DNA of 64,000 bases from an uncultured virus (IMG/VR IMGVR_UViG_3300020421_000004) (IMGVR_UViG_3300020421_000004); one strand, 5' to 3'. Shown: positions 6,572 to 40,777, counted from the first letter of the stretch. Translations and numbers: made by a program. Notes: generated by a model from the letters alone, not told the origin.

Positions 6572-6831
6572 GATTCCAAAGTTTTTTGCTCCTTTGGTAT
6601 TAGGTTGTCGGCATCGTATAATGGCGTTATGCCATATTCTGGTGCTCGGTCTTCTTGTGATAAACTAACATAAAGGCTTGCTGCAGATTTTAATGCAGTG
6701 CCTTCTGTGCGAAATGTCGCACAATCAAGCCAGTATTGTTCGTCAAATTGTTCACCTATTTCTAAGTGAGCAACTTCGAACTCATGGCGTTTTCTGGTGT
6801 ATCGTACAAATATTGATGTATTATCTGACAT
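6556..6831 (-). CDS. hypothetical protein
   Basis: CACCAG-AAGGAG then ATG. Confidence 0.7.
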   Translation of the reverse strand: MSDNTSIFVRYTRKRHEFEVAHLEIGEQFDEQYWLDCATFRTEGTALKSAASLYVSLSQEDRAPEYGITPLYDADNLIPKEQKTLESWMEA

Positions 6832-6843
6832 ATTATCTCCTTC

Positions 6844-7423
6844 TGGTGAAGAGTAAACTATATTGTTTTTTTGAGAAAGTCCAATCCGTGAAATGCATTA
6901 GCATTCGCCATTGGTCTGTGTCTTGTCTTTCAGGTAAGAATCGCTTAATTTTGCGCCGTGTTAACGGTTTGCCCTTTTATAGTGTTGAGCGGAATGTTCC
7001 GCGTCCACCTTGTGCTTTGCGGATGCAAAGTAGATGGGTTGCACCTCTAGATTATACTAGGGGTGACCTTAACAGGGTCAAAAGTAACGATGTCTTCCCT
7101 AGGCTAGAACTGCACGCTTCAGAGTGCTGTTTCTATCCTCAATCTTTCTCAAAAAAACTTACACAAATGTTAATGTTGGTTTTTAGGCCAAAATCGCAGA
7201 AAACAATTTTTGTTTAACCCTTAACAAAGGGTGTTGTTGTTTGCCGCAATCAGGTGTGCAGTGTTAACTTGCGTCACACCGGTTCCGTCAAAGTGTCATC
7301 AAGAATAAGACCAGGTCTATGGTTTTACTCTTACATGATTTGTGTCACTTTGCGGACTCGGTGTTTCGGAAGTTAACACTACGTCATTGGCCTTGCGGCC
7401 TCAGTAGTTTAATCTAACTCTTC
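6844..7423 (-). ncRNA. putative 580-nt structured RNA with K-turn, 7-bp terminal stem and ACCA tail
   Basis: 5' GAAGAGU pairs with 3' ACUCUUC+ACCA; K-turn 7379-7407; long internal stems GUAGUGUUAACUU/AAGUUAACACUGC and GUUUUUUUGAGAAAG/CUUUCUCAAAAAAAC. Confidence 0.7.
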
Positions 7424-7715
7424 TAGTGAATGGTAAGTCCTAATGTGATAATATTATGAGTCACAAGTTCTTGTGGCGATAGTTCATTAATTCTCGTTGA
7501 ACCACGTCAAGTTTATCTTGACAGTGTAATATTATCACTGGTGTCAGAACGGCTAATAATCGATGAAGACCGAAAAACATCGTTTTGCGGATGTAATGTA
7601 TCTTCACGTATTGTTAGGGCTTTGCCAGTGTAGACTGACAAGGGGTTTATGCCCGTTCAGGCTCTGACGCCATACGTCATTAGCCTCTCGGCTTCAGTGT
7701 GTGCTTTACTCATTC
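7424..7715 (-). ncRNA. putative 292-nt K-turn RNA
   Basis: GAAUGAGUAA/UUACCAUUC termini + ACUA; K-turn 7671-7701; stems GGCGUCAGAGC/GUUCUGACACC and GUGAUAAUAUUA/UAAUAUUAUCAC. Confidence 0.7.
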
Positions 7716-8023
7716 TAGTGGAAGTTTCTAAATTCTCAGTGCAACTGTTTGACGCATGTCATGCACCATTACCTGACCCCAAAGGGCAGGTTATGGCAAG
7801 GCATAGCGCATCGCGTAGCGTGCTGCATGGGGCTGGTTGTGCTGAGACGTCTCATAATCCGGTTCTTCGACTATTGACGTGAAATTTATTTTCACGGTGC
7901 AGGTGTAGAGTGCATACTCTACTCCGACGGTTCTTATCGGCGGGATAAGAAATCGGCACGTATCTATAGTCGCCGGTGTTGAGGCGTTTCGTCATTGATT
8001 TTAATCTCAGATTTTACTCTTCC
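7716..8023 (-). ncRNA. putative 308-nt K-turn RNA
   Basis: GGAAG/CUUCC termini + ACUA; K-turn 7989-8011; nested hairpins. Confidence 0.65.
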
Positions 8024-8052
8024 TAATTGTTGGTTTCTGTCTCTTGTCCATC

Positions 8053-8172
8053 TAGTGGAGGACTAAGCATTTTGATGAAATGAGATAGTTCGCCCATCAT
8101 AGGCAACCGCTATCTCAAAAAAGAGACAATAAAACAAGAACCAACATAACTTGTTAATATGCTTACTCCTCC
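8053..8172 (-). ncRNA. putative 120-nt RNA with paired ends
   Basis: GGAGGAGUAAGCAU pairs with AUGCUUAGUCCUCC (one mismatch) + ACUA. Confidence 0.6.
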
Positions 8173-8180
8173 TAGTAGTA

Positions 8181-9041
8181 TCAACCAGTGATACAATTAC
8201 ATTTTTCTGATTTACAAGTAGTACCATCTGCAAGCAGATTGTTCAATTTGTAAATATTTCCACCATCATATGAGATGGGGTTTTCTGGACATCGCCTAAC
8301 TTGTCCCATTGGGTCAACGTCTACCATCTGGAAATCTTCTCCAGGGCAGTTGTTAATTCCAAGTAGGTTGTTTAGAGCAATGTCTCCAATGTATTTTTTA
8401 CCGTCTCCGGTAATGTTCACCCACGGATATTCTGTGAATACTCGTTGGTAGTTTTCCCAAAACTTAAAACCTTGCTGCTCGTAAATCGAGAGCGGTTTGT
8501 AAATTAGGTGTTGTACAGTGTTAGGGTAATTAATAGACTCCAACATTTCTCCAAATGCATCTTCATTTTCATAAAGCCATTCAAAGACCGTTGGGGTCCA
8601 AAGTAAATTGTAATTAATTACAGTAGTAGAGATTTTACTAAGGTCCCATTCTAGGTGTTTAGTTTGTTCCATAAAATCCTGTATGCTTTCAAATCGCATA
8701 TCGTCTACTGAGATAGTCAGAACATCTAAGTTCTGAAAAAATACTTTGTCATCACCGGCTTCGAGTGTGCTCGCCACAGTTGTTACACTTGTGTTGAAAC
8801 CCAAACTTTTGGCGTAGAGTATATATTTTTTAGTCATCTCAAAAGACCCAGGAAATGGGTTCCATGTTATTGCAAAGTCAGTATAACCATTTTCCGCAGC
8901 AGTTTCAATTGCTCGTAAATAGTATGCTTCTGACTTGGTTGCATTTCTCATCTCTTTTGTAACATCTGTTGTTAAGTAGCACCCTTCGCAACTGAGTTGG
9001 CAGTTGAAACTGGGTGCGATTGAAAATATTTTTTTATTCAT
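8181..9041 (-). CDS. radical SAM superfamily protein
   Basis: CQLSCEGC (CxxxCxxC), TISVD, Cys-rich C-terminus (SPASM/twitch-like). Confidence 0.85.
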   Translation of the reverse strand: MNKKIFSIAPSFNCQLSCEGCYLTTDVTKEMRNATKSEAYYLRAIETAAENGYTDFAITWNPFPGSFEMTKKYILYAKSLGFNTSVTTVASTLEAGDDKVFFQNLDVLTISVDDMRFESIQDFMEQTKHLEWDLSKISTTVINYNLLWTPTVFEWLYENEDAFGEMLESINYPNTVQHLIYKPLSIYEQQGFKFWENYQRVFTEYPWVNITGDGKKYIGDIALNNLLGINNCPGEDFQMVDVDPMGQVRRCPENPISYDGGNIYKLNNLLADGTTCKSEKCNCITG

Positions 9042-9054
9042 TTTCTGTCTCTCC

Positions 9055-9507
9055 TAGTGAAAGAAACTATATTATTCTGCGGTTTTGGATTTATTCCAAA
9101 TGGCACATCCCGACTTATCGGGGAGGGACAAAAATTTCCTAGACAAATTTTGCTCGAGATTCGTGTTAATCAAAATAACCCAACTTTGTTGTCTCTGCGC
9201 GCCTGCGCTGTCGAGTCTCTGGCTTTACTATTGCCGATCTCGGTTATTTATTAATACGTTCCTCGTGAAAAGTTGTCGAAAATGTTTTGCCGTGCATAAG
9301 CAGAATTTTTCCAATAGTACACAACTAACGGAAAAGACAGAGAACACGATTTTATTTTTGCCGCACTTCTAATTGTATTTTTAGAAGTTCTGAAAATACG
9401 TTGTTCTCACGTAAATGTGAAATAGTGTTCTGTACTTGTTCTGTTAGTTGTTAACTCTTGGAAAAAAACGTCATTGGCATTAACTGCCTCAGTGTTTTCT
9501 TTCTTTC
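9055..9507 (-). ncRNA. putative 453-nt K-turn RNA
   Basis: GAAAGAAA/UUUCUUUC termini + ACUA; K-turn 9468-9493 followed by a long stem; no minus-strand ORF. Confidence 0.7.
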
Positions 9508-9524
9508 TAGTAGAGTTGTTACAC

Positions 9525-10256
9525 TCATAGTGCCAAGATAAACTCGGCACCTTGTTGTAGAACAACAAATCCTAAGTTGTTGTCCATGATGATTATCGAC
9601 CATGAAGTAGCAGGCCCTAGGTTATTACGCCCAGCCTTTACCATCTTCATTATGATATCATCTATTTGTTTATACCTTTCAGTTGAATCAAATTTTTTCC
9701 CGGCAGTGATTTCATCACACACGCTTTTCCGCCAATTGGCGTACTCAACATGGCTTGTTTCAGTTGCTGAAAAATGGACTTCCAAATGAGACTCTTGGCC
9801 ACTAGCAACGCTTTGCAAGCGGTGCTTAAAGTGGTTGTGAATCTCGGTCATAAAGTCGTCATTGGACATTCTAAAAACATCATCATCGTCTGGTAGACGA
9901 GGAAGTTTGTGCTTTTTTAACCATGATGTATCTGTCGTCAAAGCAATAATTTCACTCCTTTTTAGTGGAACGTTTAATTCTTTTGCTTTTGTTTTAACAG
10001 TCGTCAGGTCTGGTGAATTTCGAACAATTTCTGCAAGTTGCTGGTGGGCGATTTTAAGTTGTTCCCTTTCCGCTTTAGCAGCGTTCTTTTGGTTCAACTT
10101 ACGTTTTGCGTCCGCCTGCGTCTCGAGTTTTAAGTTCTCTCCGACAACTTTAGTGTTGCTTTGGTTTGCTAAAATAAACGCAACAAGTGCGCTGTTATTT
10201 GCTTCCAGTTTTTTCAATTCATTGGTATCTATATTAATTATTATTTCAATAGTCAT
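9525..10256 (-). CDS. hypothetical protein
   Basis: TACTAG-GAGA leader. Confidence 0.8.
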   Translation of the reverse strand: MTIEIIINIDTNELKKLEANNSALVAFILANQSNTKVVGENLKLETQADAKRKLNQKNAAKAEREQLKIAHQQLAEIVRNSPDLTTVKTKAKELNVPLKRSEIIALTTDTSWLKKHKLPRLPDDDDVFRMSNDDFMTEIHNHFKHRLQSVASGQESHLEVHFSATETSHVEYANWRKSVCDEITAGKKFDSTERYKQIDDIIMKMVKAGRNNLGPATSWSIIIMDNNLGFVVLQQGAEFILAL

Positions 10257-10291
10257 ATATTGGTTTCTCCTAGTAATGGCGTGAAGCCATA

Positions 10292-10975
10292 TTATCCAAA
10301 CATCGAGTCTAGACCATCATTCTTGTCTGCAGGTTCAGTACTGTCGACAACAGGTTGTTCAAAATGGAGACCTATTTCTAGTTGTTCTCCGACTTTAAAT
10401 CCATGTCGTCTTACAGTTTCATAACCGATAGTGGCAACTTTTGGTGCCAATGTATGCAGTGCATCTTTTTGTTCAATACTATGCATTTTCATTTTATCAA
10501 ATATTTGCGGTAAAGTACGATGCAGTAAGTTTGGTAAGAACACTTCTTGGAAGTCTCCCAGTAAATCTGGTAGTGCTTCTTTGACTTGTTCTATTGCTGA
10601 TTCACGATCGACTTTGTCGTCTCTCATAACGACCTGGATTGCTACGTTTCCTATTGCTTTTTTAAGCAACGGGTCGTGCATTATAAAAGAATAAATATTG
10701 ACATCACCAAGGTCTATTTTTCCTTGCATTGGGTCAATATTGTTCTTTTCCATTTCGTTCATCATTGAATGAATAATGCCGTCTAGTCCTTCTGCAAGTT
10801 CTATTGGGGCATCTTCAAAGTCAGTTCTTTTAGACAGTATAGGCATTAAGCCCGTGTCTTCTTTCATTAGTTGGTAATAAAGGACAACTGAAAAATAGTC
10901 TGCGGGAGAAAACATCTCCTTAGTTTTTATCTTTTTTTCTAGTCCTTCTCTTACAAATCCTCTGCTGTTCGTCAT
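10292..10975 (-). CDS. hypothetical protein
   Basis: TACTAG-ATG start. Confidence 0.8.
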   Translation of the reverse strand: MTNSRGFVREGLEKKIKTKEMFSPADYFSVVLYYQLMKEDTGLMPILSKRTDFEDAPIELAEGLDGIIHSMMNEMEKNNIDPMQGKIDLGDVNIYSFIMHDPLLKKAIGNVAIQVVMRDDKVDRESAIEQVKEALPDLLGDFQEVFLPNLLHRTLPQIFDKMKMHSIEQKDALHTLAPKVATIGYETVRRHGFKVGEQLEIGLHFEQPVVDSTEPADKNDGLDSMFG

Positions 10976-11012
10976 CTAGTAAGACCACTAAGTGGTCAGT
11001 TAAAGGTTTGAT

Positions 11013-12779
11013 TCATTCGAGTTCTGTCAGTTCTGCAACTTCTACGTTGTCAGATTGATTACTCGAATCGTCAACAATATTTCTTCGGCGATTCTTATCG
11101 TTGGTCTTTCCAGACTTTCCGATAGAACTGTTGTTATTCGCTCTTCTCATGGATCCATTGTCAACAAAGGATCGCATGACTTCAATTTCGTCTTTCTTAG
11201 TTTTGCTAGTTGGAACCAGCGCCTCTAAGACGTAAACGAGATCTCTCATCTCAAGTGGACGGTCTTCGCTAAAAGACCTAGTCATTGCTTCTTCAATACC
11301 GTCTTCGATGTTACGACCTGAGAACTTGGCAGTTTTGCGAACTAGTTCTTTAATATCAAACTTGCTTGCATCTTGCTTTCTTAGTCCCAGGTGGATTTTA
11401 ATAATCTCTTCTCTTTCTTCAGGTTCTGGAAGGTCAATAAAGAATCTTCCTTCGAATCGGTCTATCAATTCTGGAGCGAACTTATTCATGTTATTTGCTG
11501 TAAAAACAAAGAACACTCCTGAGTCATCTTCCTGCATGAATGTAAGAAACTGTCCGAGAACGGCATCGTGTGCGCCGCCATCGTGGATTCCTTCTGACTT
11601 ACCAAGTAACTTCTCTGCCTCGTCAACGAAGACGATTAGCGGAGCCGCTGCTTTAGCAATCTCCAATAGTTTATGCACTTTTGCTTCGGACTCCCCAACT
11701 AGGGAGCCTTTCAGGTCAGTTGCATCTACCATTAGTATATTCATGTTCATTTCTTTGGCTGCTGCTTTTGCAATGGCTGTCTTTCCACAACCAGGCACAC
11801 CAGCCATCAAAAGTCCGCGAATGTTACGAATAAATCCGTAGTCTTTCGCAGAGTTTGTAAACCGCTTCGATATCAGTGTAACCCATTCTTTCAAAGGGGT
11901 CAATCCACCGATTTGTTCGAAGCCTGTTGTCGGGCGAACCAGGGTAAAACCCGCTCGCTCAACATTTTTTCTTTTTTCATCGAGGATGAAACTTACGTCC
12001 CATCTACCATTGTTGATTACACTCAAGGTGAGCACATCATCAATAGCGTTTCTTGTAAAACCCGCACAGGCATCTGTGAAGGTTTCGATATCTTTTTCAC
12101 TATAATTCCTAAAGGTTGCTATGGTTTGTGGCCTAAGCATCCCATCGGATTCATATGCAAATTGGTGGCGAATACTTTCAACCAAGTCAAGCCTAGTAGC
12201 CTTATCCGGTAAAGGATAATTTATTAGTCTTACAAATTGGTCTAGTTCCTTAGGAACGTTTTCGCTTGTCCATCTTGAAGGGTTGAGCATGACAACATTT
12301 TTGTTGGCACCTCGTAATATTGTTTCAAACAAGTTTAGTTGTCGATCTATATGTTCTGTATTAGAGTCGATAAAGTTGTGCCAGTCTCTGAGGACGAAGA
12401 TTGCTCTTCTTCCTTCATTATGGCCATCATAATCTGTCATGTATTGAACTGCAAACGGTACTTGACAGCCAGGGAAGTCTTCATCACTGGCTTCAATAAC
12501 ACCGGTTGGTCTAACTGCAATATCATCGACTGCAAAGCCGGATACATTTGTTAGTATTTCGTGTTCTTCATTTTGATCATCTTTAGCATATCCAGCGTAC
12601 TCTTCAAAGCCACGGGATACTCTCCACACCAATATTCTTGGTGTTTCAGTAAACTGCTCGCAAGCAGATTTGACTATTTCGTCAATTATGCATTGCGTCT
12701 CTGGCGACGATATCGCCAAGCAGGGTATAGATGCGTTCACTATCATTCTTAATTCATTTTTTGTATGGTTTTCATTCAT
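11013..12779 (-). CDS. Ycf46-like AAA+ ATPase
   Basis: Walker A GVPGCGKT, Walker B VFVDEAEK, FTAN, DRF; degenerate N-terminal AAA domain (FVLRDWH). Confidence 0.9.
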   Translation of the reverse strand: MNENHTKNELRMIVNASIPCLAISSPETQCIIDEIVKSACEQFTETPRILVWRVSRGFEEYAGYAKDDQNEEHEILTNVSGFAVDDIAVRPTGVIEASDEDFPGCQVPFAVQYMTDYDGHNEGRRAIFVLRDWHNFIDSNTEHIDRQLNLFETILRGANKNVVMLNPSRWTSENVPKELDQFVRLINYPLPDKATRLDLVESIRHQFAYESDGMLRPQTIATFRNYSEKDIETFTDACAGFTRNAIDDVLTLSVINNGRWDVSFILDEKRKNVERAGFTLVRPTTGFEQIGGLTPLKEWVTLISKRFTNSAKDYGFIRNIRGLLMAGVPGCGKTAIAKAAAKEMNMNILMVDATDLKGSLVGESEAKVHKLLEIAKAAAPLIVFVDEAEKLLGKSEGIHDGGAHDAVLGQFLTFMQEDDSGVFFVFTANNMNKFAPELIDRFEGRFFIDLPEPEEREEIIKIHLGLRKQDASKFDIKELVRKTAKFSGRNIEDGIEEAMTRSFSEDRPLEMRDLVYVLEALVPTSKTKKDEIEVMRSFVDNGSMRRANNNSSIGKSGKTNDKNRRRNIVDDSSNQSDNVEVAELTELE

Positions 12780-12795
12780 ATTTTTGAACTCCTTC

Positions 12796-14964
12796 TGGTG
12801 ATAGATTTATGGGAAGCGGGAATTTTGGTAGCATTCTTCCCTACATATAGTCGGGTTGCATATTACCAATCGCCAGTGATAAAGTTAAAACAGTGATTCC
12901 ATAAGTTGTTTTCTGTTTTGTTTACATAATTTTAGCCGGCTGCTTAATTTAAAGCAGCAACCCAGACACCCTAAGTGTCTAGAATAGAGAATTGGTCAGC
13001 GTGCTAAACGCACCTTTCCCGTATTCTCCCTTGGGCCAGACGCCGCGACTTGCCAGGTCCCCAGTGTGGGAACTTAGTATGGCGGCTTGAAAATCTTTTA
13101 CAGCCAAATTGGCCATTGCTTTACCACGGCTCTTCCAGGTACTGGACGAACCATTTGTGTGGTATGAAGCACCATTAGTCGTAGAGCCAGAAAAGAACTA
13201 CCTACATTTTCAATGTAAATTCCTTTCTGGCTAGCGTTGTTTAGAAATGTCACATGCTGTTTAAACGCAACCAGTACACAACACCCTTGGGCGCGGCTAA
13301 CTTGGTTTGTGTTCACATGTTTGTAAAGTTCTTTTTGGGCAGTTCTAGTGAACTGTTTGCGCTGCAGGCGCTGCTGGACATGGTCCGTGCACTGAGCGTT
13401 AAGAATTCAGAGGAATTATATCCACTGATTATGGGTATTCAGTATCCTGTTTTCTAAGAAGTGGTCAGTTATCGGACTAGTTGTCGGACAACACCACGAA
13501 CTTATTCATGACCCGGGCGCGCCACTTCTCATTCTAGAGTGGTTTGCTGAGGTAGGAACTTCTTTCCATATGATTTTACATTCTTTTTCTAACGTGTCTA
13601 CTATCAGGTCAGTTGGCCAGGTTCGTAGAAGTTAGACTAATGTTTTGATGTTCTTGTTGTAAACTTATTTATCGTTTAATTCACACTTAAATTTTCGTTG
13701 TCCCAATCCACCTGGCACTTGTACATTGTACTTGTGTCATAGTCGACGGGTTTACTTCATTGTCTTGAGAATTCTTTCGAATACTCTCTGTGCAGGAGTC
13801 GTAGTTAACGTTCTTTTCTATGGTACATGTTATGTCCATAAATCGATTTTCGTTTCCACTCGTGCGCATGTATTACGCGTGTAGAGTCTTGTCCATAATC
13901 CTTCTGAAAAGGTTTTATAGGCATATTTTGTATCAATAATCATCCCGTCTCTGCCATGCATTGCAATGGCTTCGTCCGGGAGTCGTCTTCGTAGTCACCA
14001 GGGTGGGACCACAGATGTTAATCATTGATTGTAAACTATTTTATGAGTTATTCGCCAACTGTTTAGTGGCGCACGGATGTGCACTTTATCGCGAGTGAGC
14101 ACCAGGTGCTCCTTCTGGGTTACACATGTATTCCATGTTAATTCTCTGTAAACTTTTTTTGGTCGTTTAAACCGAGGTAATCACAGTACTCTCTATGGAC
14201 CAGACGGGCCATGGAGTAGAGTGGCGGTAGAATCTTTGTGCTAATAAAAGTCACATTCTACTGTAAATCATTTTCTATCGTGTTCGTATTCGGTTTTCCA
14301 CACTCCAGAGGTACCTGGTGTGAGACCGCGGTCCATTACCACGTGTCTTCAGGAGGAGAAAGAACGGTCCGCCGCTCTTTACTCACCGAGAACTTCCATG
14401 CTGCTTGGGCTCCTAAAGAAATTTCCAATTTCCTTAAGGTTTGCAAACAGAACTGCTTAGTGACCAACACCAGTGTTATAGTAACCAGGTGCTTATTCAA
14501 TTAAGCCTTGTAGAAAATGCCTTTCGTTTACATCACAGTTTACTCATTGCCTAACTTTTCTGGCAGCGATGTTGCTGCTGGAGTCAGGTCGAAGACACAG
14601 TCTTCTTTAGCCGAAGACCTAATTGTCTCCGCTTGAAGACACTATGTCTTCTTCAGAGTGTTCTACAAAAGCATAGCATGCGTTTAGTGACATTATCTCC
14701 CCTGATGTTACCATAGGAGGGATCGAAACTAATCGCGGTAGTCGTTAGACTGTTAGCGTGCTTTCTTGCGTGTTTGACAATTCGATAGGTGTTTTGACTT
14801 CTCCAATCTATGGAGAAGTGCTTTACTTAAATCGTATTGTGTGTGTTTTACGTGTATAATTAGTTTTGGGGACCCGTTAGGGTCATCCCTCCTATGGTAA
14901 CATAACGTCATTGGTTATTTACCTCAGTATTATTATCACTAATCTTCGTAATCCATAATCTATC
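12796..14964 (-). ncRNA. putative ~2.17-kb structured RNA with K-turn, paired termini and ACCA tail
   Basis: GAUAGAUUAUGG pairs with CCAUAAAUCUAUC+ACCA; K-turn 14902-14933; 19-bp perfect stem (~14707-14725 with 14885-14903); dense hairpins; no credible ORF. Confidence 0.65.
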
Positions 14965-15164
14965 TGTTGGGCGACATAAGTTTTGCAATTGCTTATGCCG
15001 CACCGTTGGTGCAAGTGTATGCCTTTACATCAAGTCGAGGATAGCCAGCCAAAGCAGAGTTGTGAGGCTCTGCTTATTCTGCTCCAAATTCCCGACAAAT
15101 TTATCCTTCGGGCAACTGATCAAGTTACTTTTACTTGGTGTAAAAGTTTGTGTTATACTCTTGC
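14965..15164 (-). ncRNA. putative 200-nt structured RNA
   Basis: Bounded by ACUA|G and AACA|G; several hairpins; no minus-strand ORF. Confidence 0.45.
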
Positions 15165-17003: not shown

Positions 17004-17411
17004 AATAGTCTCTCTCTAGTAATCCCCTATAGGGATAAAGTATGTATTAGTAATATATTATACTAATAGCCTTTATATTTATCATTATTCTTTGTATTCA
17101 TAAGTGTTCATTCTAATGCCGCCTGCAAATGTTACAGGTTCATTATTGTACAATTCTTTCATTGCGTGTACACTTTGTGCCATACTTGTTCTTAATGGTA
17201 TTGCCATCTATTAACTAGGATTGCAATTTACCTAGTTCACTTATACCTCTCTTGGTCACTATTTCAAGTCTCTAGAGGAAGATTTTCCACAGCCGTAAAT
17301 GCTTCACGACAAGTATGCTTACGTCAAGACAGTAAACAGGGACTGGGCGCTTATTTTGCGCGGTCTATCTAAAAAAAATGACATTGATTATTTTACTAAT
17401 CAATGCCGTTC

Positions 17412-17540
17412 TATCTGATAAGATTGGTAGTCTTATCTCAATGAATCCTTCACTGAATAAATTCAGTTCGAGACCCAAAGCGTTTATCCGGAAAGATATC
17501 CGGATAAATCGTCTTCCCAATAAAGGAAAGATAATCTATC
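17412..17540 (-). ncRNA. duplicated ~125-nt structured RNA, copy 1
   Basis: Near-identical to 21471-21595; paired ends; UUUAUCCGGA/UCCGGAUAAA hairpin. Confidence 0.65.
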
Positions 17541-17641
17541 TGATGTAAGTGCTCTGGGGTTATCGTTATCAGGTTGTACAGTCCTTTCCTTTCCCCCCGC
17601 GAAGAGAACCTGGCCCCACATAGTGGTAGCGAGGTTACCTC

Positions 17642-17678
17642 CCTTACATTATTATAACGTTTCATTTTATACCGGTAT
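17642..17678 (-). promoter_or_regulatory. conserved promoter-like element, copy 1
   Basis: ATACCGGTAT-N8-ACGTTATAATAATGTAAGG; extra palindrome at 17696-17705. Confidence 0.75.
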
Positions 17679-17731
17679 ATGGCATTATGCTTTCAATACC
17701 GGTATAACTCTGTCTAGTAGTGGGATATCGC

Positions 17732-17950
17732 TTATCTTATAAGAAAGCGTAGTTCTTTTTGGACATCTAATGATTGGCTTGCGTCCACTGTAAATATGGT
17801 ATCACCTTGTAGGAAGATTTGCAATCTTTCTATCTTCGGATTCGTGGTATCTCGTACCATCTGCCATGCAGTGACGGCTGATATTACAATATCAGTCATT
17901 CCATCAGTTGTCTTTATATCCCTTAATGTTTTATCGTATTTAAACGTCAT
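17732..17950 (-). CDS. hypothetical protein
   Basis: Hairpin + TATTAG-ATG. Confidence 0.7.
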   Translation of the reverse strand: MTFKYDKTLRDIKTTDGMTDIVISAVTAWQMVRDTTNPKIERLQIFLQGDTIFTVDASQSLDVQKELRFLIR

Positions 17951-17995
17951 CTAATAACGGCTCACTTAGAGATGTCCCTAAGCAGCGTTATGGTT

Positions 17996-18214
17996 TCAGC
18001 GCATCCTTCCGTTGCTAGCATGTTTCCTTCCGTGTCTACTGGAAGTACTGTTATTTCTAGCAATGTTCTTGCGGTGTTCTTGTAGCCGACTCATGTCTTC
18101 ATAGCGGGACATTTTAACATCCCACCATGAATTATTCTGGAGACATACTGGTCTCTCAGGTTGTTCAGTTCGTGCGTCTACTTCCTTTCGGTATTCTTCA
18201 ATATCCCGGGGCAT
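17996..18214 (-). CDS. hypothetical protein
   Basis: TACTAG-ATG. Confidence 0.65.
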   Translation of the reverse strand: MPRDIEEYRKEVDARTEQPERPVCLQNNSWWDVKMSRYEDMSRLQEHRKNIARNNSTSSRHGRKHASNGRMR

Positions 18215-18231
18215 CTAGTAAAAGAAAGATT

Positions 18232-19418: not shown

Positions 19419-20180
19419 TTACCAACAATTACTGAGTTTGTTCATTATATCATTGTAATCAAAACTATACGATGCTCTTGCGGTAGTCCATCCTTCACCA
19501 TTTACTAATCCGATGGGTGCCATTCTTGTCGCCTCAGAGACGTCCGTATCGCAACCACTATTATCGGGTCCGAAAGGTTCGTCGCTGACGTATATGCTTA
19601 CGGTTCTATGATCGACAACACTGTCGTTCATTCCCAACATATAATAGCAGCCATTAGTGACTCTACATTCCGGCACGCTTGCACTGGTGTGGAAAACCCA
19701 TAGTGAGTCTTCGTTCCAGACTTCGTTCATGCGGAACGAGAATGTCATTGCTGCTGACATCATTAATTGTTCATCAGTATAGTTTGGTGGTGGTGTCCAT
19801 AGCCCATAACTTCGGGTCCGAGTGCTTGCTTCGACGAATCTGTCGTCTGCTGCATAGCCTTCATGTTCCTTCCATTCTTGGGGGCTAACTAAGGTTTTAT
19901 CCACAGTCGTTCCATTTGGTAAGTTTATTCTAACATCCAAAAGGAGACAAGTGTCTATTATACCATAGTCATTTGTTGTGTTATTAGAAAGATAGCAACT
20001 TACGTCGTATTTGAAATACAGCATATTGCCGTCTTCTTCTACTTCGTTTTCTGCACCTGTATTTGTTACGTATCCTATTGGCAGCAACATCATTAAGATA
20101 ATTGCCGATATAAAATATGCATTAAAATATCTGTGTCCTGTTACTTTCTTTCTTATTGTATTAATTTTTTCAAAAATCAT
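19419..20180 (-). CDS. membrane-anchored hypothetical protein (start moved out of the tRNA)
   Basis: N-terminal hydrophobic helix; TAATAG-AT-ATG at 20180. Confidence 0.75.
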   Translation of the reverse strand: MIFEKINTIRKKVTGHRYFNAYFISAIILMMLLPIGYVTNTGAENEVEEDGNMLYFKYDVSCYLSNNTTNDYGIIDTCLLLDVRINLPNGTTVDKTLVSPQEWKEHEGYAADDRFVEASTRTRSYGLWTPPPNYTDEQLMMSAAMTFSFRMNEVWNEDSLWVFHTSASVPECRVTNGCYYMLGMNDSVVDHRTVSIYVSDEPFGPDNSGCDTDVSEATRMAPIGLVNGEGWTTARASYSFDYNDIMNKLSNCW

Positions 20181-20192
20181 ATCTATTAATGG

Positions 20193-20269
20193 TGGCGGGC
20201 CTAGCAGGGTTCGAACCTGCGACATTCCGGTTAAGAGCCGGACGCTCTACCTGACTAAGCCATAGGCCC
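20193..20269 (-). tRNA. tRNA-Lys(CUU) with encoded CCA
   Basis: Acceptor GGGCCUA/UAGGCCC, anticodon arm UCCGG-CUCUUAA-CCGGA, T-loop GGUUCGAAC, G-CCA end. Confidence 0.97.
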
Positions 20270-20634: not shown

Positions 20635-20674
20635 CTACCTATATAATAAGTGCGCCCCGTAGGACGGCTTATAT

Positions 20675-20884
20675 TTATTCTTCACTCCACTGTTCTGCGA
20701 GTGCTTTGACTTGTTTCCAAGTTGTTTTCGCTGTGCCAAGTGGCTCCATCGAACTAAGTATAACATCGTCGTCGTCCAGTATGTCTTCTACTGCTTTACG
20801 CCAACGAATATTTTTCTCAGCAATCTTTAATAATTTGATTATCTTTGCTTGTTCATCTGTTTGTGTCATCATTTCTTCTGTCAT
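20675..20884 (-). CDS. hypothetical protein
   Basis: ORF after ATCA|G. Confidence 0.65.
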   Translation of the reverse strand: MTEEMMTQTDEQAKIIKLLKIAEKNIRWRKAVEDILDDDDVILSSMEPLGTAKTTWKQVKALAEQWSEE

Positions 20885-21470
20885 GTGTATCTGATAAAAA
20901 AAAAGACGCCACAGTTGTTACACCGTGACGCCTTTCCTTTTGTTTCTTCCCAACTTGAAATTAATCAAGCCCTTCCATGAGCAGTAGATTCAACTTGCAT
21001 TGCTGAATTTCCCACTCGCCTAAGATGTAGATGTGTAATTCCTATCCGGAGCAGGGGGCCGATCTTATGCGGCTGGTCCCAACATCTGTCATGTTATGGT
21101 ATCGTCAGTCTTACAGAGACAAAATCTGTAAGTCCTATTCGGTCATAGAGAAACCGCCGGGGTAGGTGTTGTGCACCTCCATAGCAGTTTTTGTTTATCC
21201 TCTCTCAAAATGATACTATAACAATAGCATCTAATATCTATCTGATACATAGCAGTCTGAACCTTGCTATGAAAATTATATTTTCCCATGGCCTCTCGGC
21301 TCCTGTATCATGGGAGGCATATTAGTTAGTCTATCGGACATTTGCCTTTTTTTGATTTCGTTTATCATTACCACCCTGGCAACCCAAGACACCTTAGAGC
21401 ACACTTTCAAAATGCTCTAAGGTGATTCAGACTTGGTTACTGTTGGTATGTGGTTTGTACCCGTAGGTTC

Positions 21471-21595
21471 TAATAGGATTGGTAGTCCCATCTCAATGAA
21501 TCCTTCGCTGAATAAATTCAGTTCGAGACTCAAAGCGTTTATCCGGAAAGATATCCGGATAAATCGTCTTCCCAATAAAGGAAAGATAATCTATC
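21471..21595 (-). ncRNA. duplicated ~125-nt structured RNA, copy 2
   Basis: Near-identical to 17412-17540; bounded by AACA|G and AUUA|G. Confidence 0.65.
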
Positions 21596-21664
21596 TGTTG
21601 ACACGTTTATGGCTTAGGTGTGTGAAGCCTATTGGGTTTCTTACCGCGCCCAAGCGTGAGACCC

Positions 21665-21943
21665 TCAAAAGAGATAGTCGTCGCCGAAGTCATCTTTATG
21701 TCTCTTCCAAGATTTCTGCTCTGACACATACTTTCTTTTCTGATTCAGTAAAAACTTATCTTTGTTCGATAATCCCTTTCTTGGGTTTGCCTTCAGCCAC
21801 CTTGCGGCAGCCTCTTCGTCGGCCCATCTCTCTCCGTGAATGAAGGATGCCTTAATTAAAAGGCGCTCCTGTTCCACGGTCAAATCTGACCGAGCATGCA
21901 ATCTCGTGTAGTCTTCCAATGTAATACTATTAATATCAAACAT
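21665..21943 (-). CDS. hypothetical protein
   Basis: TAATAG-GAGA leader. Confidence 0.75.
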   Translation of the reverse strand: MFDINSITLEDYTRLHARSDLTVEQERLLIKASFIHGERWADEEAAARWLKANPRKGLSNKDKFLLNQKRKYVSEQKSWKRHKDDFGDDYLF

Positions 21944-21953
21944 CTTAATCTCC

Positions 21954-22455
21954 TATTAACCGTTGGGAGGCGGCGAACCGCCCCTCCATTGGTTTTTATT
22001 ACTCAGTTGGTTTATAGTCTGGTTTGAGTAGTCCAGACACGATGTATTCATCTCAAATGCTAAAATAAGACACTCCTCGAGGTTCCTCACAAAGTCCATC
22101 CTGCGCCTTAAAGCGGTCAGGTTGTTAATGACAATGCGTATAAGTTCACTTCCAAAAGGAAGGTACTCGAAGTTCTGTTTTTAAACTTAAATTGCTAATC
22201 GCAGTTCAACTGTACATTTCTGCACCGTCCATCCCCCCTTACGGGCTTTTGCTGCTCTTGGCCTTATTTTAACTCGAATCATACGGGATGATAGAGTTTT
22301 TGTAGTGGGTTTTGACACCCACTACGGAATCTCACGAACCGGGCCGAAGCCCGAAGTAAATGCCGCCTAAGCAGCGAACGTGAGTTGGCAGCCTGTGAGG
22401 GCTGCCGGCATCTAAAAATGCCTTTTCTGTTAAAGAGGGTGCTTTCCCTCCTTAC
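21954..22455 (-). ncRNA. putative ~500-nt structured RNA with H-type pseudoknot
   Basis: Directly downstream of promoter copy 2; GC-rich hairpins; 13-bp long-range stem; pseudoknot 22000-22038. Confidence 0.55.
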
Positions 22456-22486
22456 ATTATTATAACGTATTAACCGATACCGGTAT
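22450..22486 (-). promoter_or_regulatory. conserved promoter-like element, copy 2
   Basis: Same motif and spacing as copy 1. Confidence 0.75.
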
Positions 22487-22594
22487 GTTACAATAATCTC
22501 TTACTGGTAGCCATCTAGGAATAATCCCCTAGTGGCTCTATGTCCGCTTTAGTAGGTGCGTCGTCCTAGGCGTTTCAGGCCATATTATCGCGGC

Positions 22595-22726
22595 CTAACC
22601 TCCACAGTTTATGCAAATAGATGAACCCCACGCTAGGCTGTGTATTCGTCCTTTACAACGAATACATCTAGGCCAACCGTCATTAAGTTCATCTTCTTTG
22701 CTATTCAATTCTTTTATTGTTATCAT
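22595..22726 (-). CDS. small zinc-ribbon protein (43 aa)
   Basis: MITIKEL...CIRC...CINCGG*; GGAGGAG SD. Confidence 0.6.
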   Translation of the reverse strand: MITIKELNSKEDELNDGWPRCIRCKGRIHSLAWGSSICINCGG

Positions 22727-22788
22727 ATTTATTTCTCCTCCCTTTCGGGACTAATAACCAAAGGTGCGCCCGAAGACGTCTTTTTATT

Positions 22789-22908
22789 TCATGCTGGGGC
22801 GGTTTCCACCATGTACTCTAGAATACACTCTTCTGTGTATTCTCTAGCCCATAGTTTTCCGTCATGCTCTGCATATACAATTAATTTTGATTTCCCATCA
22901 CTGTTCAT
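22789..22908 (-). CDS. small hypothetical protein (39 aa)
   Basis: MNSDGKSK...; AGGTGA SD; first ORF after promoter copy 3. Confidence 0.55.
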   Translation of the reverse strand: MNSDGKSKLIVYAEHDGKLWAREYTEECILEYMVETAPA

Positions 22909-22941
22909 TGTTTCACCTTTTGGTTGTGTAAGGAGTTCTCT

Positions 22942-22978
22942 CCTTACATTATTATAACGTATGAACCGATACCGGTAT
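22942..22978 (-). promoter_or_regulatory. conserved promoter-like element, copy 3
   Basis: Same motif and spacing as copy 1. Confidence 0.75.
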
Positions 22979-22979
22979 C

Positions 22980-25717: not shown

Positions 25718-28700
25718 ATGGAAGAGCCTGAAGCGGTTGGGATACGGTCTTTTATTTGGTTTATCAAACCAGAAGACATCTATTCAGAAGAAGTCGAATT
25801 ACCTTCTACCAAAGAAGAGGGTGCGACATTCGTAGGTGTAAGAGACTTCATCGATTTCGATTTAAACAACGGTAGGCTGAAACACAAATGGGTGCCTAGA
25901 TGGAAGACTGAAGCAATAAGATATCTAACGACGCACGAAGATGCAGCAGGTTTACGAGCAGCATCAGACGTCTACTACCTAGTTACAATCAAAACAGAAG
26001 AAGATATTGTTGACAAGTCTGAAACATACCCAAAAATGATTCCTGAGGGGTGTGATGGAATGATATTAGAAGTACCAATAAAGGGGAAACTAATGAAGGG
26101 TGACCCAAGTCCTGATTTACCTATTTCATTTTATACAAACTACAAAAACGACCGTATTGACCTAAAAGAAGCCGGAGAAATAGGCGGAGTCAATATGGAA
26201 ATAATGTCACCAGAAGAGATAATAAAAATGTCAGTGGTCGAAGTTATCACTGGTGAGGCACTTAGAGAAGATACGGATCAAATAACACCTGTTATTGGTG
26301 GAACAATGGATCCTAGAATGGGTTCTTTGGCTAAAGATTCTGATTGCCCAACTTGCTACTTACCATTTGACCCATCGACCAACGACTCTACCAAAAGTTG
26401 TTCGGGGCATTTTGGCCATATCTCACTACCAGAACCTATACCTAACATACTTTTTCTAGGAGAAACGAAAAGAAAAGGAGATACCTCTAAGCCTTTGCTA
26501 GACGCATTAAATAAGACCTGTCATAGTTGCAGTAGAGTTATGTTACCTAACGATTTATTAGAAAGTCTAAGACCTAGAATACTTGAGGAATTTACGCTAG
26601 GTGGTAAAAACATAGCATCGAGAAGAAGAGTTAGAGCAATAATGAGTAAATTTTTCAATAATGTTGATAAGACTGGAAGAAACTGCCCACATTGTTCTGC
26701 AATAACACCAAAAATTACTTTCTACTTTAACTCTGGAGAGTTTCAATATGATACTAAAAGAGAAGATGGTGTAGATTTACTTAGTTACAGGGCAGTTCGA
26801 GACATCTTTAGCGACATCCCTGACGGCGATTGTTATTTTCTAGGGATAAATCCTGTAACATCTAGACCTGAAAATATGTTTTTTGAAGTCTTACCAGTCA
26901 TACCAAATACATCTCGGCCAATAAAGCAAAGAAGTGACGGCAGAACAGATGTAGATGATTTAACTAAACTCTACGGTGCTGTGGTTAACGATGCCAATAA
27001 GTTGCTCACAATCAAAAACTCAGGACGAGCGGTAAGGAGTGGACGATATGCTAGGAAAATGCTTTTGTTTTCGGTATCTAGATTAATTGACAATAGTAAT
27101 CAAACAATAGGTTCTGGAGGCAGTAAGCAGACTTTTACCTACGGTGCAGGGGTTCAACTAGAATCCTTAAAGGGGGTTTTGAATAGGCTAGAAGGTAAAA
27201 AAGGTAGACTTAGGAATAATCTGCAGTCTAAATATGTAAACAACGTAGGTTACTCAGCAATAAGCCCAGATCCAAATTTAGCAATAGACGAAGTCGGTGT
27301 ACCAATGGCCATGTTATTGGGTGACGATGGCATAACGTATCCTGTAACAGTCACTAACGAAAACATAGTTCGAGTTAAACAGTATATACAAAACACCATT
27401 GATGACGTACACCCAAAAGCCAAGCGTTTGTTCAATCATATCAACGAACAAGGTGGTGATGTTTTAGAACGCAGTTCAGCAGAACATCTCACTCATGTTA
27501 TGGATGGCTTGAAACCAGGAATGGTAGTAAAAAGGGAATTGATGGATGGCGATATTTGCTTATTCAATCGAGCACCGTCTTTACATAGACAATCAATAAT
27601 GGCATTCAGAATAAGAATTGTGCCAACAAAAAGCCTTAGTATGAACCCAACAGTTTGTATTCCCTTCAACGCAGACTACGATGGAGATGCAATGAAAGCA
27701 CACTTTGTTCAATCTGAAGCAGCAAAGCAAGAAGCAATCAAATTGATGTCATTAACAAAGAACATCATTCATTCTAGGTACGGGATGCTAACAGTTGCTA
27801 CCGACCAAGACCAAACTTCTGGCTTGTATCTATTAACTTACACCGACAAAGCCAAAGCAAACACTTGGAATAGTGGCACAGGATTTGGATTCAATGCAGA
27901 AGGGCTACCGTATGTCTCTAAGCAAACTGCAATTGAATGTTATTCGACTGTATTTAGTGAAATAAGAGACGGTAAAGAAGGCAAAACTTACCGCACGATG
28001 GATTCATTACCAGAATCTGACGCCGCGACACCTGATGGACCTGGGTATACTGGCAGAGCATTATTTAATCACCTATTTACAATACTGGACGCAGAGTATG
28101 TTTCTGCTAGTTTTCCTGGTGACACACCGTTGACTGAGGTACTTGAAGACGGCTCTGTTGCTGTTAAGCGAGAAAACGGCAAAGCCATCAGAGAACAGGT
28201 AGTCATTAGGAGTGGTAAACTAGTTTCTGGTACACTTGAGAAGTCAGCATTTGGCGAAGGAGGTGCATCTATTGCTCCATCTTTCATTTACCATGAGGGC
28301 TATGAAGCAGGACAAGAGAAGTTAGTAGAATTTATAGAACTGGCTACTAGACTCGGATTTGCTGCTCACAAAGTTGTCGGCTATACAATGGGAACTGCTG
28401 ATGTTTCCGCAGTTCCGGTACAACAAGATATAGATAGGCTCTACAGTGATTGTGCAAAAAAGATACTAAAAATAGACCAAGCGTTTGCTAATGGACAACT
28501 GAAACAGTATGTTGAAAACCACACACCAGAAAAAGCAATAGAAGCATTAGCAGATCCATTGTCATACATTGAAGATCAGATACTTACATTTACAGACACC
28601 TTTGAGAAAAAGATGCTAAACAAAATAGAAGACTATCAAGGTAGCGGAAATGCCATGCAGATTGCTGTCAGGTCAAAAGCAAGAGGCAAACCGATGAATA

Positions 28701-30406: not shown

Positions 30407-30713
30407 ACTGCCAATACTTAGCAGCCGCACGATAGAAAACGTCTTCTGATGCTATTGGACCCAATTCACGGTACATATACCACATATTAGTTTTCAAAGA
30501 TTTTAGAAAATCTTTTTCGTCATCTATTTCGAAGTTCTTTACCAACGCTTTGTAGTAAATTTCTTTTCTATCACGGTAAGTACAAACAAGACAGCCTCTA
30601 GTTGAAGAGTATCTGTAAATACTTTGTCGATCTAAGTCTTTGACGACTTTATAGTGGTTTCCGCAAATACAGCATAACTTCCATGCGATAGCATTTTCAG
30701 CCAAAGTAATCAT
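30393..30713 (-). CDS. hypothetical Cys-motif protein
   Basis: CxxC pairs; coupled to the polB stop. Confidence 0.6.
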   Translation of the reverse strand: MITLAENAIAWKLCCICGNHYKVVKDLDRQSIYRYSSTRGCLVCTYRDRKEIYYKALVKNFEIDDEKDFLKSLKTNMWYMYRELGPIASEDVFYRAAAKYWQSTQE

Positions 30714-40461: not shown

Positions 40462-40522
40462 TGTAGTAGCCTCCCTATGAATAAGACCCACTTAGGCATA
40501 TATTGTGCAACAGCGTCAGATA

Positions 40523-40777
40523 TCATGCTTCCACCTCATCTTCTAACCAACCTTTCCTCAGTGCATACTGATAATACCATTCTTCCTCCAATTGCTCATA
40601 GAGTCCTTCCGGTAAGCAATTGACGTTGACATATTCCTGCAATACCATTTCTTTACAAAGTAAACACTGAACCTTCTTCTTGTGGGTTCTAATGCCGCCT
40701 GTAGGTAAGTTCTCTTCTTTGGCGGCTAATTCATAAATATGGTTCCCACCGTTAAGATCATGTGAGCACTCTTTCAT
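40523..40777 (-). CDS. hypothetical protein
   Basis: GAGGTGG SD. Confidence 0.6.
   Translation of the reverse strand: MKECSHDLNGGNHIYELAAKEENLPTGGIRTHKKKVQCLLCKEMVLQEYVNVNCLPEGLYEQLEEEWYYQYALRKGWLEDEVEA

Follow-up and report, generated by a model that had tools for sequence, protein, structure and literature searches.

GOLLD and ROOL, two large structured non-coding RNAs (ncRNAs) of bacterial phages, have conserved bodies and are represented in Rfam, and their function is unknown. The OLE RNA is a large ornate ncRNA whose kink-turn (K-turn) is bound by the protein OapC, as described in the part of the report considered here (PMC9723947). For K-turns in general, the sections of two studies that are drawn on here describe that a cytosine at position 3b and a C:G pair at -1b:-1n confer folding by metal ions (Mg2+) and that the K-turns of box C/D RNAs and of the l7ae 5′ untranslated region (UTR) do not fold without protein (PMC6298567, PMC8191799); every K-turn tested folds on the protein L7Ae (PMC6298567). 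Here, a 64,000-nt stretch of DNA from an uncultured virus (IMG/VR IMGVR_UViG_3300020421_000004), referred to in its whole length as the window, was analyzed following an original prediction of five viral ncRNAs, here called U1 to U5, that share a K-turn close to their 5′ end. With moderate confidence, the five units are regarded as an undescribed family of discrete folded ncRNAs combining a K-turn/L7Ae head with exchangeable structured bodies; this confidence refers to the anatomy and the L7Ae head and is lower for any role.

The pattern CTGA-N6-24-AATGACG has exactly five matches in the window (7382-7404, 7675-7697, 7990-8010, 9469-9492 and 14906-14927), all on the minus strand and all at the places originally predicted, and dinucleotide shuffles contain 0.68 matches on average, 1 of 100 shuffles reaching five. 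The heptamer AATGACG alone is not rare (13 observed, 7.25 expected), so that the signal lies in its combination with CUGA, the hairpin, the single strand and the location. All five motifs fall within three gaps of the minus strand (6832-8180, 9042-9524 and 12780 to about 15000), a gap being defined by the lack of a minus-strand open reading frame (ORF) of at least 90 amino acids. A covariance model (R1) of 51 distinct instances recovers only these five in the window with E-values of 5e-7 to 3e-4, the next-best match having an E-value of 0.25. The heads lie on the minus strand at 7374..7412 in U1 (stem GGCC/GGCC, GCAA loop; 34.2 bits, E 3.8e-6), 7667..7705 in U2 (stem AGCC/GGCU, GAGA loop; 26.4 bits, E 3.3e-4), 7982..8018 in U3 (stem GAU(U)/(A)AUC; 37.8 bits, E 4.7e-7), 9461..9500 in U4 (stem GGCA/UGCC; 32.8 bits, E 8.7e-6) and 14898..14935 in U5 (CUGA-GGU AAAUA ACC-AAU-GACG with flanking pairs of the non-canonical (NC) helix; 35.8 bits, E 1.5e-6). 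The stems proposed beforehand (GGCC/GGCC, AGCC/GGCU, GAUU/AAUC, GGCA/UGCC and GGU/ACC) are found as written.

The motif family extends to a whole clade of marine elements. Based on an alignment (A1) of the AAA+ ATPase encoded in this region, 80 metagenome loci were fetched, and a regular expression (CTGA, hairpin, NNT, GACG) was applied to 700,479 nt comprising the window and the related loci, near-identical window copies included; all 71 matches share the strand sense of the ATPase gene. The 1,517,640 nt of unrelated loci contain 28 poor matches, 20 on the plus and 8 on the minus strand, without the features of the family. Similarly, 71/71 matches of the covariance model at E<=1 in 65 related loci (597,316 nt) are on the sense strand, and the model also picks up CCGA variants that the regular expression missed. 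For the analysis of covariation an alignment of 51 rows (A2) was derived from 54 distinct instances by dropping two inside ORFs, one with a weak hairpin and one duplicate and by adding the window's own copy. A flanking pair outside the search pattern (A2 columns 8-36) is paired in 43/51 rows by six pair types (AU 22, UA 15, GC 2, GU 2, CG 1, UG 1), with a covariation score of 0.484 compared to 0.140 after shuffling (0/500 reach it) and at most 0.095 in slid controls, and the next pair outward is paired in 27/51. It is mainly due to the relatives, namely to the single-strand matches and this unselected covarying pair, that the motif is judged to occur more often than by chance. A relaxed pattern gives 80 distinct sense-strand matches and 20 antisense matches; L3 = U and 3b = C are combined in 54 of the 80, and the other 26 are near the antisense background. 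Members of the family keep L3 = U, L2 = purine and 3b = C, their loops are GNRA or UUCG (GAAA in 26 of the 80 sense-strand matches), G.U pairs occur, and UUCG, UUAU, AAAUA and GUUAA are seen as caps other than GNRA. With the covarying head in 51 instances, the proposal of a common K-turn head on otherwise unrelated bodies is borne out. An exact-pattern scan of IMG/VR with the commonest form of the motif gave three matches, all in GC-rich coding DNA of unrelated contigs and taken as chance, and the K-turn motif was not found in G001, a complete distant relative of 140 kb.

The non-bulged strand of the motif reads 5′-N-C-(U/C)-G-A-[C-helix] and the bulged strand [C-helix]-N-R-U-G-A-C-G-N′, with N-R-U as the 3-nt bulge. 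The GA cores for the tandem G.A/A.G pairs (CUGA or CCGA and N-R-U-GA) are present in 51/51 instances as part of the search pattern, and 4b:4n is G:C in 51/51 as imposed by that pattern, which is no independent test. The identity at -1 was not imposed by the search, and pair 13-28 (-1n:-1b) is G:C in 49 of the 51 instances, giving C:G at -1b:-1n, and A:U in the other two. Moreover, 3b:3n is C:U or C:C and non-Watson-Crick, many homologues have CCGA in place of CUGA, RUGACG and not RUGAUGA forms the C-like side in every instance, and the bases that precede CUGA pair with those that follow the C-like box in 43/51. RUGAUGA has 28 matches in the window, none of them within a unit. As 3b = C and C:G at -1b:-1n mark the Mg2+-folding class and not the box C/D type under the published rules, the viral motif is, judged by its sequence, a standard simple K-turn that probably folds by itself and that L7Ae should bind. 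The box C/D-type assignment of the original prediction had to be given up in view of the uniform RUGACG, the C:U/C:C at 3b:3n, the C:G at -1, the 28 RUGAUGA matches outside the units and the upstream bases, which are paired and not free as a guide.

A unit may be counted as the interval between one A(C/U)(C/U)A|G junction, whose G is its first base, and the following junction, which on the minus strand gives U1 at 6844..7423 (580 nt), U2 at 7424..7715 (292 nt; junction box and single-sequence fold), U3 at 7716..8023 (308 nt, with an alternative upstream box whose G is at 8052) and U4 at 9055..9507 (453 nt; junction G's at 9507 and 9054). U5 has a 5′ domain at 14690..14939, beginning with the junction G at 14939, and a hypervariable, ORF-free body at 12796..14689, which ends at the CACCAG junction ahead of the ATPase gene. 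The distances between junction G's, with 2144 nt for U5, are near the lengths given before, the last of which was 2169 nt. The 5′ G ascribed to each unit corresponds to the G of a conserved A(C/T)(C/T)AG or ATTAG box 11-18 nt before CUGA, and its equation with the 5′ end of an RNA is putative. Such a box is present 9-27 nt upstream of the K-turn (mode 12-13) in 57 of 87 pattern matches, compared to about 7.5 expected, the 30 matches without it including false positives as well as TTTAG and AATAG variants.

The units are closed by their own ends. In single-sequence folds of U1-U4 the stretch that immediately follows the box G is paired with the one that immediately precedes the next box: in U1, GAAGAGU pairs with ACUCUUC just before the ACCA|G at 6843 (7/7 closing pairs by eye), and in U4, GAAAGAA pairs with UUCUUUC just before ACUA|G (7/7 closing pairs). 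For 18 tandem units from nine loci the duplex of a unit's own leader and tail has -9.73 kcal/mol compared to -7.06 kcal/mol for mismatched combinations (0/5000 permutations). In the exact register, in which the 7 nt starting at the G face the last 7 nt ahead of the 4-nt tail, closing pairs number 5.2/7 in matched units and 3.9 in mismatched ones (permutation P<1e-4, n=15). The tails are ACCA, ACUA, AUCA or AUUA, and the resulting geometry of a G-started stem of ~7 bp and an ACCA abutting the next G resembles that of a tRNA acceptor end. In the left 20 kb, most genes have the junction box immediately before their Shine-Dalgarno (SD) sequence or their ATG. For most genes on the minus strand of window 1-20300, a short hairpin with a GNRA or other cap and a few U's are followed by ACTAG (or CACCAG, ATTAG), as for example at 692, 2316, 3456, 4889, 6361, 9054, 10270, 10976 and 17016, and these boxes either abut the ATG or precede it by 11-15 nt, with a GAG-rich SD in between. 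Being common to genes and ncRNA units, the box looks like a general signal for unit punctuation, promotion or processing. A perfect box with SD (ACTAGGAGGAG) is also found on the minus strand in 8063-8180, directly after the radical-SAM-like gene and ahead of U3, where the ATG 20 nt past the box opens only a Leu/Val-rich frame of ~10 codons.

The predicted long stem immediately after the motif is present as well, in U5 as an 18-bp helix and in U1-U4 in single-sequence folds. In the U5 class, the 12-18 nt following the K-turn pair with a segment ~170-215 nt downstream in 6/6 homologues, and the 18-bp helix is kept by compensatory changes in all six. In the window, the 5′ domain of U5 contains the long helix GUUACCAU with an extension pairing ~180 nt downstream; the sequence of the distal helix differs among the homologues yet pairs (window version AGGAGGGAU/AUCCCUCCU), and the enclosed loops contain repeated AAACAC. 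In relatives, synteny places a K-turn-headed, ORF-free unit of about 500-1150 nt ahead of the ATPase gene, and in this class repeated GACGC/ACGCA words come after the K-turn, and a variable centre separates them from a conserved 3′ element of ~100 nt. The frames opened by the RUG embedded in the motif have a median of 12 codons (n=54; 35 have at most 20 codons and two at least 60). No ORF of the U5 body is conserved in a coding-like way in the related loci L084 and L085, in which the longest small ORFs are lost, and a 60-amino-acid frame of U5 was rejected as coding, as it is kept at 56% amino acid identity, below the nucleotide identity.

The bodies appear to be structured and vary far faster than the neighbouring genes. 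Compared to strain L084, one mismatch is found in 1767 nt of the ATPase gene, three in 684 nt of ORF227, four in 732 nt of ORF243, one in the 132 nt of ORF91 that are in view and two in the 265 columns of the U5 5′ domain. The U5 body, in contrast, is 75.8% identical over 12801-14699, with 263 mismatches and 227 gap columns and with sharp divergence borders near 12950 and 14700; identities of the other units are 91.3% (U4), 93.8% (U3), 90.2% (U2) and 92.7% (U1). The substitution spectrum of U5 is balanced (136 transitions, 127 transversions, no adenine bias), and mutagenesis of the kind caused by diversity-generating retroelements was rejected for this reason; the variation gives the impression of old alleles that were passed between backbones of near identity, and not of hypermutation. 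L085, with an ATPase gene of 75% identity, shows no similarity over 13044-14759, and among relatives with 65-78% identical ATPase genes the bodies are unalignable. Compensatory double changes in pairs of the minimum free energy (MFE) fold, counted between the window and L084 and compared to permutation, number 11 in U5 (4.5 expected, P 0.006), 2 in U4 (0.4, P 0.047), 3 in U3 (0.2, P 0.001), 2 in U2 (0.2, P 0.006) and 3 in U1 (0.3, P 0.004), and 0 in the coding control, the radical-SAM-like gene (0.3 expected). Substitutions are also underrepresented at the paired positions of all five units, which is not seen in this control. A search for enriched k-mers in the bodies gave nothing strong. The hypervariability of the bodies adds support to the originally proposed picture of a common handle with variable payloads.

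The original statement that no described family is recognized is supported within the databases covered. Rfam 15 at gathering score reports only tRNA in the 64 kb, and at E<=1 there is no match in 6700-15100, including OLE, GOLLD, ROOL, RNase P, signal recognition particle (SRP), C/D and H/ACA RNAs. In the literature no description of K-turns in archaeal viruses was found, and ncRNA is not mentioned in the main-text portions consulted of three magrovirus papers (PMC5434244, PMC11706807, PMC10160649). As both Rfam and the literature are silent, the family is regarded as undescribed, and within this scope the K-turn-headed units appear to have no described counterpart.

The genes among which the units lie are all on the minus strand. 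The AAA+ ATPase gene (11013..12779, 588 amino acids; Pfam AAA 5.7e-29, phrog_8638 1.8e-86) is the syntenic anchor. A radical-SAM-like gene of 286 amino acids with a CxxxCxxC motif (8181..9041) is found between ncRNA units, also by synteny, and has a weak match to the viperin family of NCBIfam (5.4e-6, below the cut-off); its segment 8600-8800 has 28 mismatches in 200 nt compared to L084 and 0-4 per 100 nt elsewhere, which suggests a mosaic recombination block that affects coding DNA, too. Two ORFan genes of 243 and 227 amino acids (9525..10975) lie inside the ncRNA island; they have no Pfam or PHROG family, and the protein Atlas gave nothing usable for them. Further stretches without an ORF of at least 90 amino acids on the strand of the neighbouring genes are 17004-18231, 20635-22979, 40492-41334 and 44438-45556, in none of which the K-turn covariance model has a match.

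As to the nature of the element, Philosof et al. 2017 describe for the magrovirus "group D" a gene set of DNA polymerase, thermosome, resolvase and RNA polymerase A, and in the part consulted they report no closed genome of the group and leave its nature open (PMC5434244), and later papers, as far as considered here, describe group D as lacking the major capsid protein or as possibly plasmid-like (PMC11706807, PMC10160649). All four archaeal-type group D genes are present in the window, namely family B DNA polymerase (PolB, 30697-33423), an archaeal-type thermosome subunit (55933-57486; NF041082, 3e-150), a serine resolvase (37751-38497) and a fused RNA polymerase A′/A″ on the plus strand (25718-30406; PRK08566, 2e-152). 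This fusion is one ORF of 1562 amino acids with an N-terminal extension of ~150 amino acids, and no gene for subunit B was recognized within the 64-kb window. RNase H and a PD-(D/E)XK nuclease are encoded as well, and PHROGs identify tail-like proteins. A minus-strand protein of 1380 amino acids (58899-63041) matches tail-spike and virion-structural PHROG families (8.7e-50), and the gene next to it (63086-63841, minus strand) matches a baseplate wedge connector (5e-5), in contrast to the literature, in whose consulted parts group D is without recognisable structural genes. ARAGORN reports only a tRNA-Lys in the window; this tRNA-Lys(CUU) with encoded CCA (20193-20269, minus strand) is followed by an AATAG box and an ATG at most 10 nt downstream, and the ORF called at 19419-20225 overlaps it, its start probably being miscalled. 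Judged by gene content and literature, the element is consistent with "magrovirus group D", whose presumed hosts are marine group II archaea, and the host assignment has the same basis. Marine metagenomes contain abundant homologues of the ATPase on contigs of up to 234,567 bp, and contigs of 135-180 kb carry the closest ones. An alignment search of IMG/VR with the ATPase gave no close relative, its sole match being the distant G001 with 40% identity; megablast of the ncRNA region against phage GenBank gave no match, and locus searches with single proteins found none. One ATPase copy of 51% identity (L162, DMQR01000147.1, 3341 nt) is filed in a bacterial Cryomorphaceae metagenome-assembled genome (MAG), which probably reflects a binning error and not a bacterial host.

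L7Ae-family genes were found in 61/61 sampled genomes of the order of the Ca. Thalassarchaeum MAG, the presumed host order. From the archaeal appearance of the element together with these genes we infer that host L7Ae binds the viral K-turn. The motif was rejected as a host RNA family, as 7/121 host-order genomes match the covariance model with E-values of 0.002-0.05, about chance level. Two host-order genomes contain a homologous K-turn-like motif (L237, G045:C9:20191-20227, minus strand; L242, G083:C15:590-626, plus strand) of the form ACUGA-GGUGYAURCC-WAUGACGU, ~25 nt past a TATAAAAA box and over the start of a conserved gene, which has 156 amino acids from the AUG of the motif in the table-11 ORF call of L237 and 158 in L242, with an ATG two codons upstream of that AUG; the motif may serve Poseidoniales as a translational operator of the L7Ae type. 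No target of U5 was found in 201 host-order genomes, where matches of 18-42 nt on both strands reach at best E 4e-4 per genome and were taken as chance.

In the preferred reading, the five units would be arranged head-to-tail within an 8-kb island that belongs to a group D-like element and would presumably be made as separate RNA transcripts with ends at the junctions. The first ~7 nt of a unit would pair with ~7 nt ahead of the next ACCA/ACUA as stem P1, and a short K-turn arm would follow 2-4 nt after the 5′ strand of P1. This arm would consist of the NC helix with C.U (or C.C), G-C and N-N′, the tandem G.A/A.G, the bulge N-R-U and a C-helix of 3-4 bp, mostly with a GNRA cap, and the strand leaving the K-turn would run directly into the long helix of the body. 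The K-turn would be the sole invariant module and would form a sharp bend where P1, arm and body meet. In the archaeal cell, host L7Ae would occupy the K-turn, giving the same protein-bound head to every unit, and the bodies, which are structured and change or are swapped very fast, would be the variable and probably host-interacting part.

Several observations weigh against this reading. No L7Ae-family domain is found in the 66 ORFs of the window and no L7Ae-family gene in the complete 140-kb G001, itself a distant and motif-less relative, and with a K-turn that folds by itself according to the rules a purely architectural role is possible. Pairs 14-27 and 15-26 of the C-helix covary in A2, but hairpin pairing was part of the search pattern and this covariation is thus partly ascertained. 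In the register test, 5 of 20 candidate units were skipped as they have no recognisable box, and several automatic box calls were wrong, including those of U1 and U2 of the window. Many MFE pairs are broken between the strains, 72 of them in U5, and as MFE folds are also unreliable at such lengths, the enrichment of compensatory changes gives only modest support. Sliding 300-nt fold z-scores, noisy with 20 shuffles, are negative in coding DNA, too, and do not discriminate. RNAalifold on MAFFT alignments of the 5′ domains of the U5 class (6 sequences) and of the ATPase-upstream class (15 sequences) recovered only the K-turn hairpin or a mis-paired version of it, a poor recovery ascribed to length variation that breaks the alignment. 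Finally, Logan contigs from RNA libraries of four studies contain parts of U1-U5 and of genes (6800-7316, 7404-7997, 9015-9595 and 14389-15000), but they report presence and neither strand, ends nor level, and the libraries may hold DNA; the uncovered parts and the contig ends, one of which is at the U4 junction at 9507, were not used as evidence.

The strongest competitor is an RNA-only use of the K-turn, as in riboswitches and rRNA, in which it would be a folding device that bends the capped hairpin onto the body and no handle for a protein. Both 3b = C and C:G at -1b:-1n (49/51) are tied to Mg2+ folding by the published rules as quoted above, the dominating GNRA caps (GAAA in 26/80) would suit docking of the loop into a receptor, and a viral K-turn-binding protein was found neither in the window nor in G001. 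On the other hand, the caps are not always GNRA, and L3 = U and L2 = purine are invariant in the family. An invariant L3 = U suits recognition by proteins of the L7Ae family. In an archaeal cell, a consensus K-turn is moreover expected to meet abundant L7Ae, on which, in the part of the study considered, every tested K-turn folds (PMC6298567). The purely architectural explanation is judged unlikely, though to be taken seriously, and it overlaps with the preferred reading and does not exclude it. It appears improbable that the units are cis-regulatory leaders, i.e., long 5′ UTRs of the ATPase gene, the radical-SAM gene and ORF91 with an L7Ae switch of translation or stability like that of the l7ae leader, in which the K-turn would bury the AUG/GUG formed by L2-L3-G behind an SD-like GGUGAG/GAAGAG box. 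It would fit such leaders that a unit is always found ahead of the ATPase gene in relatives, that the purine-rich box resembles the SD of neighbouring genes, that the always purine L2 provides an RUG in every case, and that the two host-order genomes carry the similar motif over the start codon of a real gene of 156 amino acids. However, the RUG frames are short (median 12 codons) and unconserved, three units stand in tandem without an intervening gene, every downstream gene is served by a junction box and an SD of its own immediately ahead of its ATG, the units are closed by their own terminal stems, and the viral K-turn belongs by sequence to the self-folding class, whereas l7ae operators, according to the part of the literature used, do not fold in metal ions alone.

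The bodies could also be filler in fast-decaying spacers or recombination cassettes, of which only the first ~40-250 nt, or a DNA signal therein, would be functional. As would suit a spacer, the bodies cannot be aligned among relatives whose ATPase genes share 65-78% identity, two strains whose genes are nearly identical differ in them by 24%, and fold z-scores are unremarkable over most of their length. Yet relatives retain ORF-free stretches at corresponding positions, the unit termini covary, compensatory changes are enriched and paired positions depleted of substitutions in the five units and not in the coding control, and the 100-fold excess of divergence over the flanks, its sharp borders and its balanced spectrum are signs of allele exchange rather than of simple decay; a DNA signal, furthermore, need not have strand-specific, G.U-tolerant pairing. 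Spacers are considered very improbable. Guidance of 2′-O-methylation by box C′/D′-like half-mers, with CUGA and RUGACG loading L7Ae, Nop5 and fibrillarin, is held to be extremely improbable: the order of a D-like box, a short loop or hairpin and a C-like box is that of an internal C′/D′ motif, and box D is matched by CUGA, the beginning of box C by R-U-G-A, but against this stand the RUGACG in 51/51, C:U or C:C and not U:U at 3b:3n, the CCGA of many homologues, 0/28 RUGAUGA matches in units, upstream bases that are paired in 43/51 and leave no free guide there, units of 292-2144 nt and no Rfam C/D match at E<=1.

The preferred family of K-turn-headed ncRNAs can be extended to a bolder and rather unlikely version, in which the island would encode a modular viral ribonucleoprotein (RNP) system. 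Long island precursors would be cut at each ACCA|G by an RNase P-like activity recognising tRNA ends, releasing units that begin with a G, are closed by an acceptor-like stem of 7 bp and end in ACCA. L7Ae, which is also a subunit of archaeal RNase P, of the ribosome and of small RNPs, would be loaded via the K-turn, and the payload bodies would be exchangeable decoys, sponges or guides whose diversity is maintained by an arms race against rival viruses or the marine group II archaea.

As a summary, ~5.4 kb of the 8-kb island (6844-8023, 9055-9507 and 12796-14939) would be given to folded RNAs with one invariant textbook protein-binding motif, and this share offers a first handle on what group D elements do. 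The K-turn covariance model marks such elements in metagenomes. If the units are real RNPs, they would be, as far as the searches show, the first family of large structured RNAs in an archaeal virus, RNA loci and not protein genes would form hypervariable islands of a virus, and they might reveal tRNA-like punctuation of archaeal viral transcripts.

Compared to known systems, the unit-initial G, the closing stem of ~7 bp and the 4-nt ACCA/ACUA tail abutting the next G resemble a tRNA acceptor end. Punctuation by tRNA-like elements that are processed by RNase P is known from mitochondrial tRNA punctuation and from MALAT1-mascRNA. In contrast to these, the viral units have no cloverleaf (ARAGORN finds the tRNA-Lys only), their tail is often ACUA, and the protein-coding units of the element have a different 3′ hairpin and U run. 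With GOLLD and ROOL they have in common to be large structured ncRNAs of viruses of prokaryotes, but they are hypervariable in the body and have no Rfam match. The OLE RNA likewise uses a K-turn as recognition site for the protein partner of an RNP within a large ncRNA (PMC9723947), but it is bacterial, cellular and a single conserved RNA of ~600 nt that is neither viral nor tandem nor hypervariable, and there is no sequence or Rfam relationship. The internal C′/D′ motif (K-loop/K-turn) of archaeal C/D small RNAs (sRNAs) shares the order CUGA, short loop or hairpin, RUGA and the expected partner L7Ae, but differs from the viral motif in the box itself (RUGAUGA, in place of RUGACG), in U:U at 3b:3n in place of C:U/C:C and in the CCGA variants of the latter; moreover, C/D sRNAs are of ~50-70 nt with a free guide of 10-12 nt, whereas the viral units have 292-2144 nt, no free guide, no terminal C/D pair and no counterpart among the Rfam C/D families at E<=1. 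The operators in the 5′ UTR of l7ae mRNA, in the parts of the reports considered here, are predicted and shown not to fold without L7Ae and gate a real ORF (Daume 2017; Huang 2019, PMC6298567), whereas the viral K-turn is assigned to the self-folding class and is not followed by a conserved ORF. With the Kt-7 class of ribosomal and riboswitch K-turns, which are binding sites of L7Ae-family proteins, the viral motif finally shares at the level of sequence the Watson-Crick C-helix, the 3-nt bulge, the tandem G.A/A.G, the non-Watson-Crick 3b:3n, the Watson-Crick NC helix, C:G at -1b:-1n and the cytosine at 3b. It differs from this class in its capped C-helix of only 3-4 bp and in its position 11-18 nt from a junction, at the point where closing stem and body meet, where it heads long RNAs.

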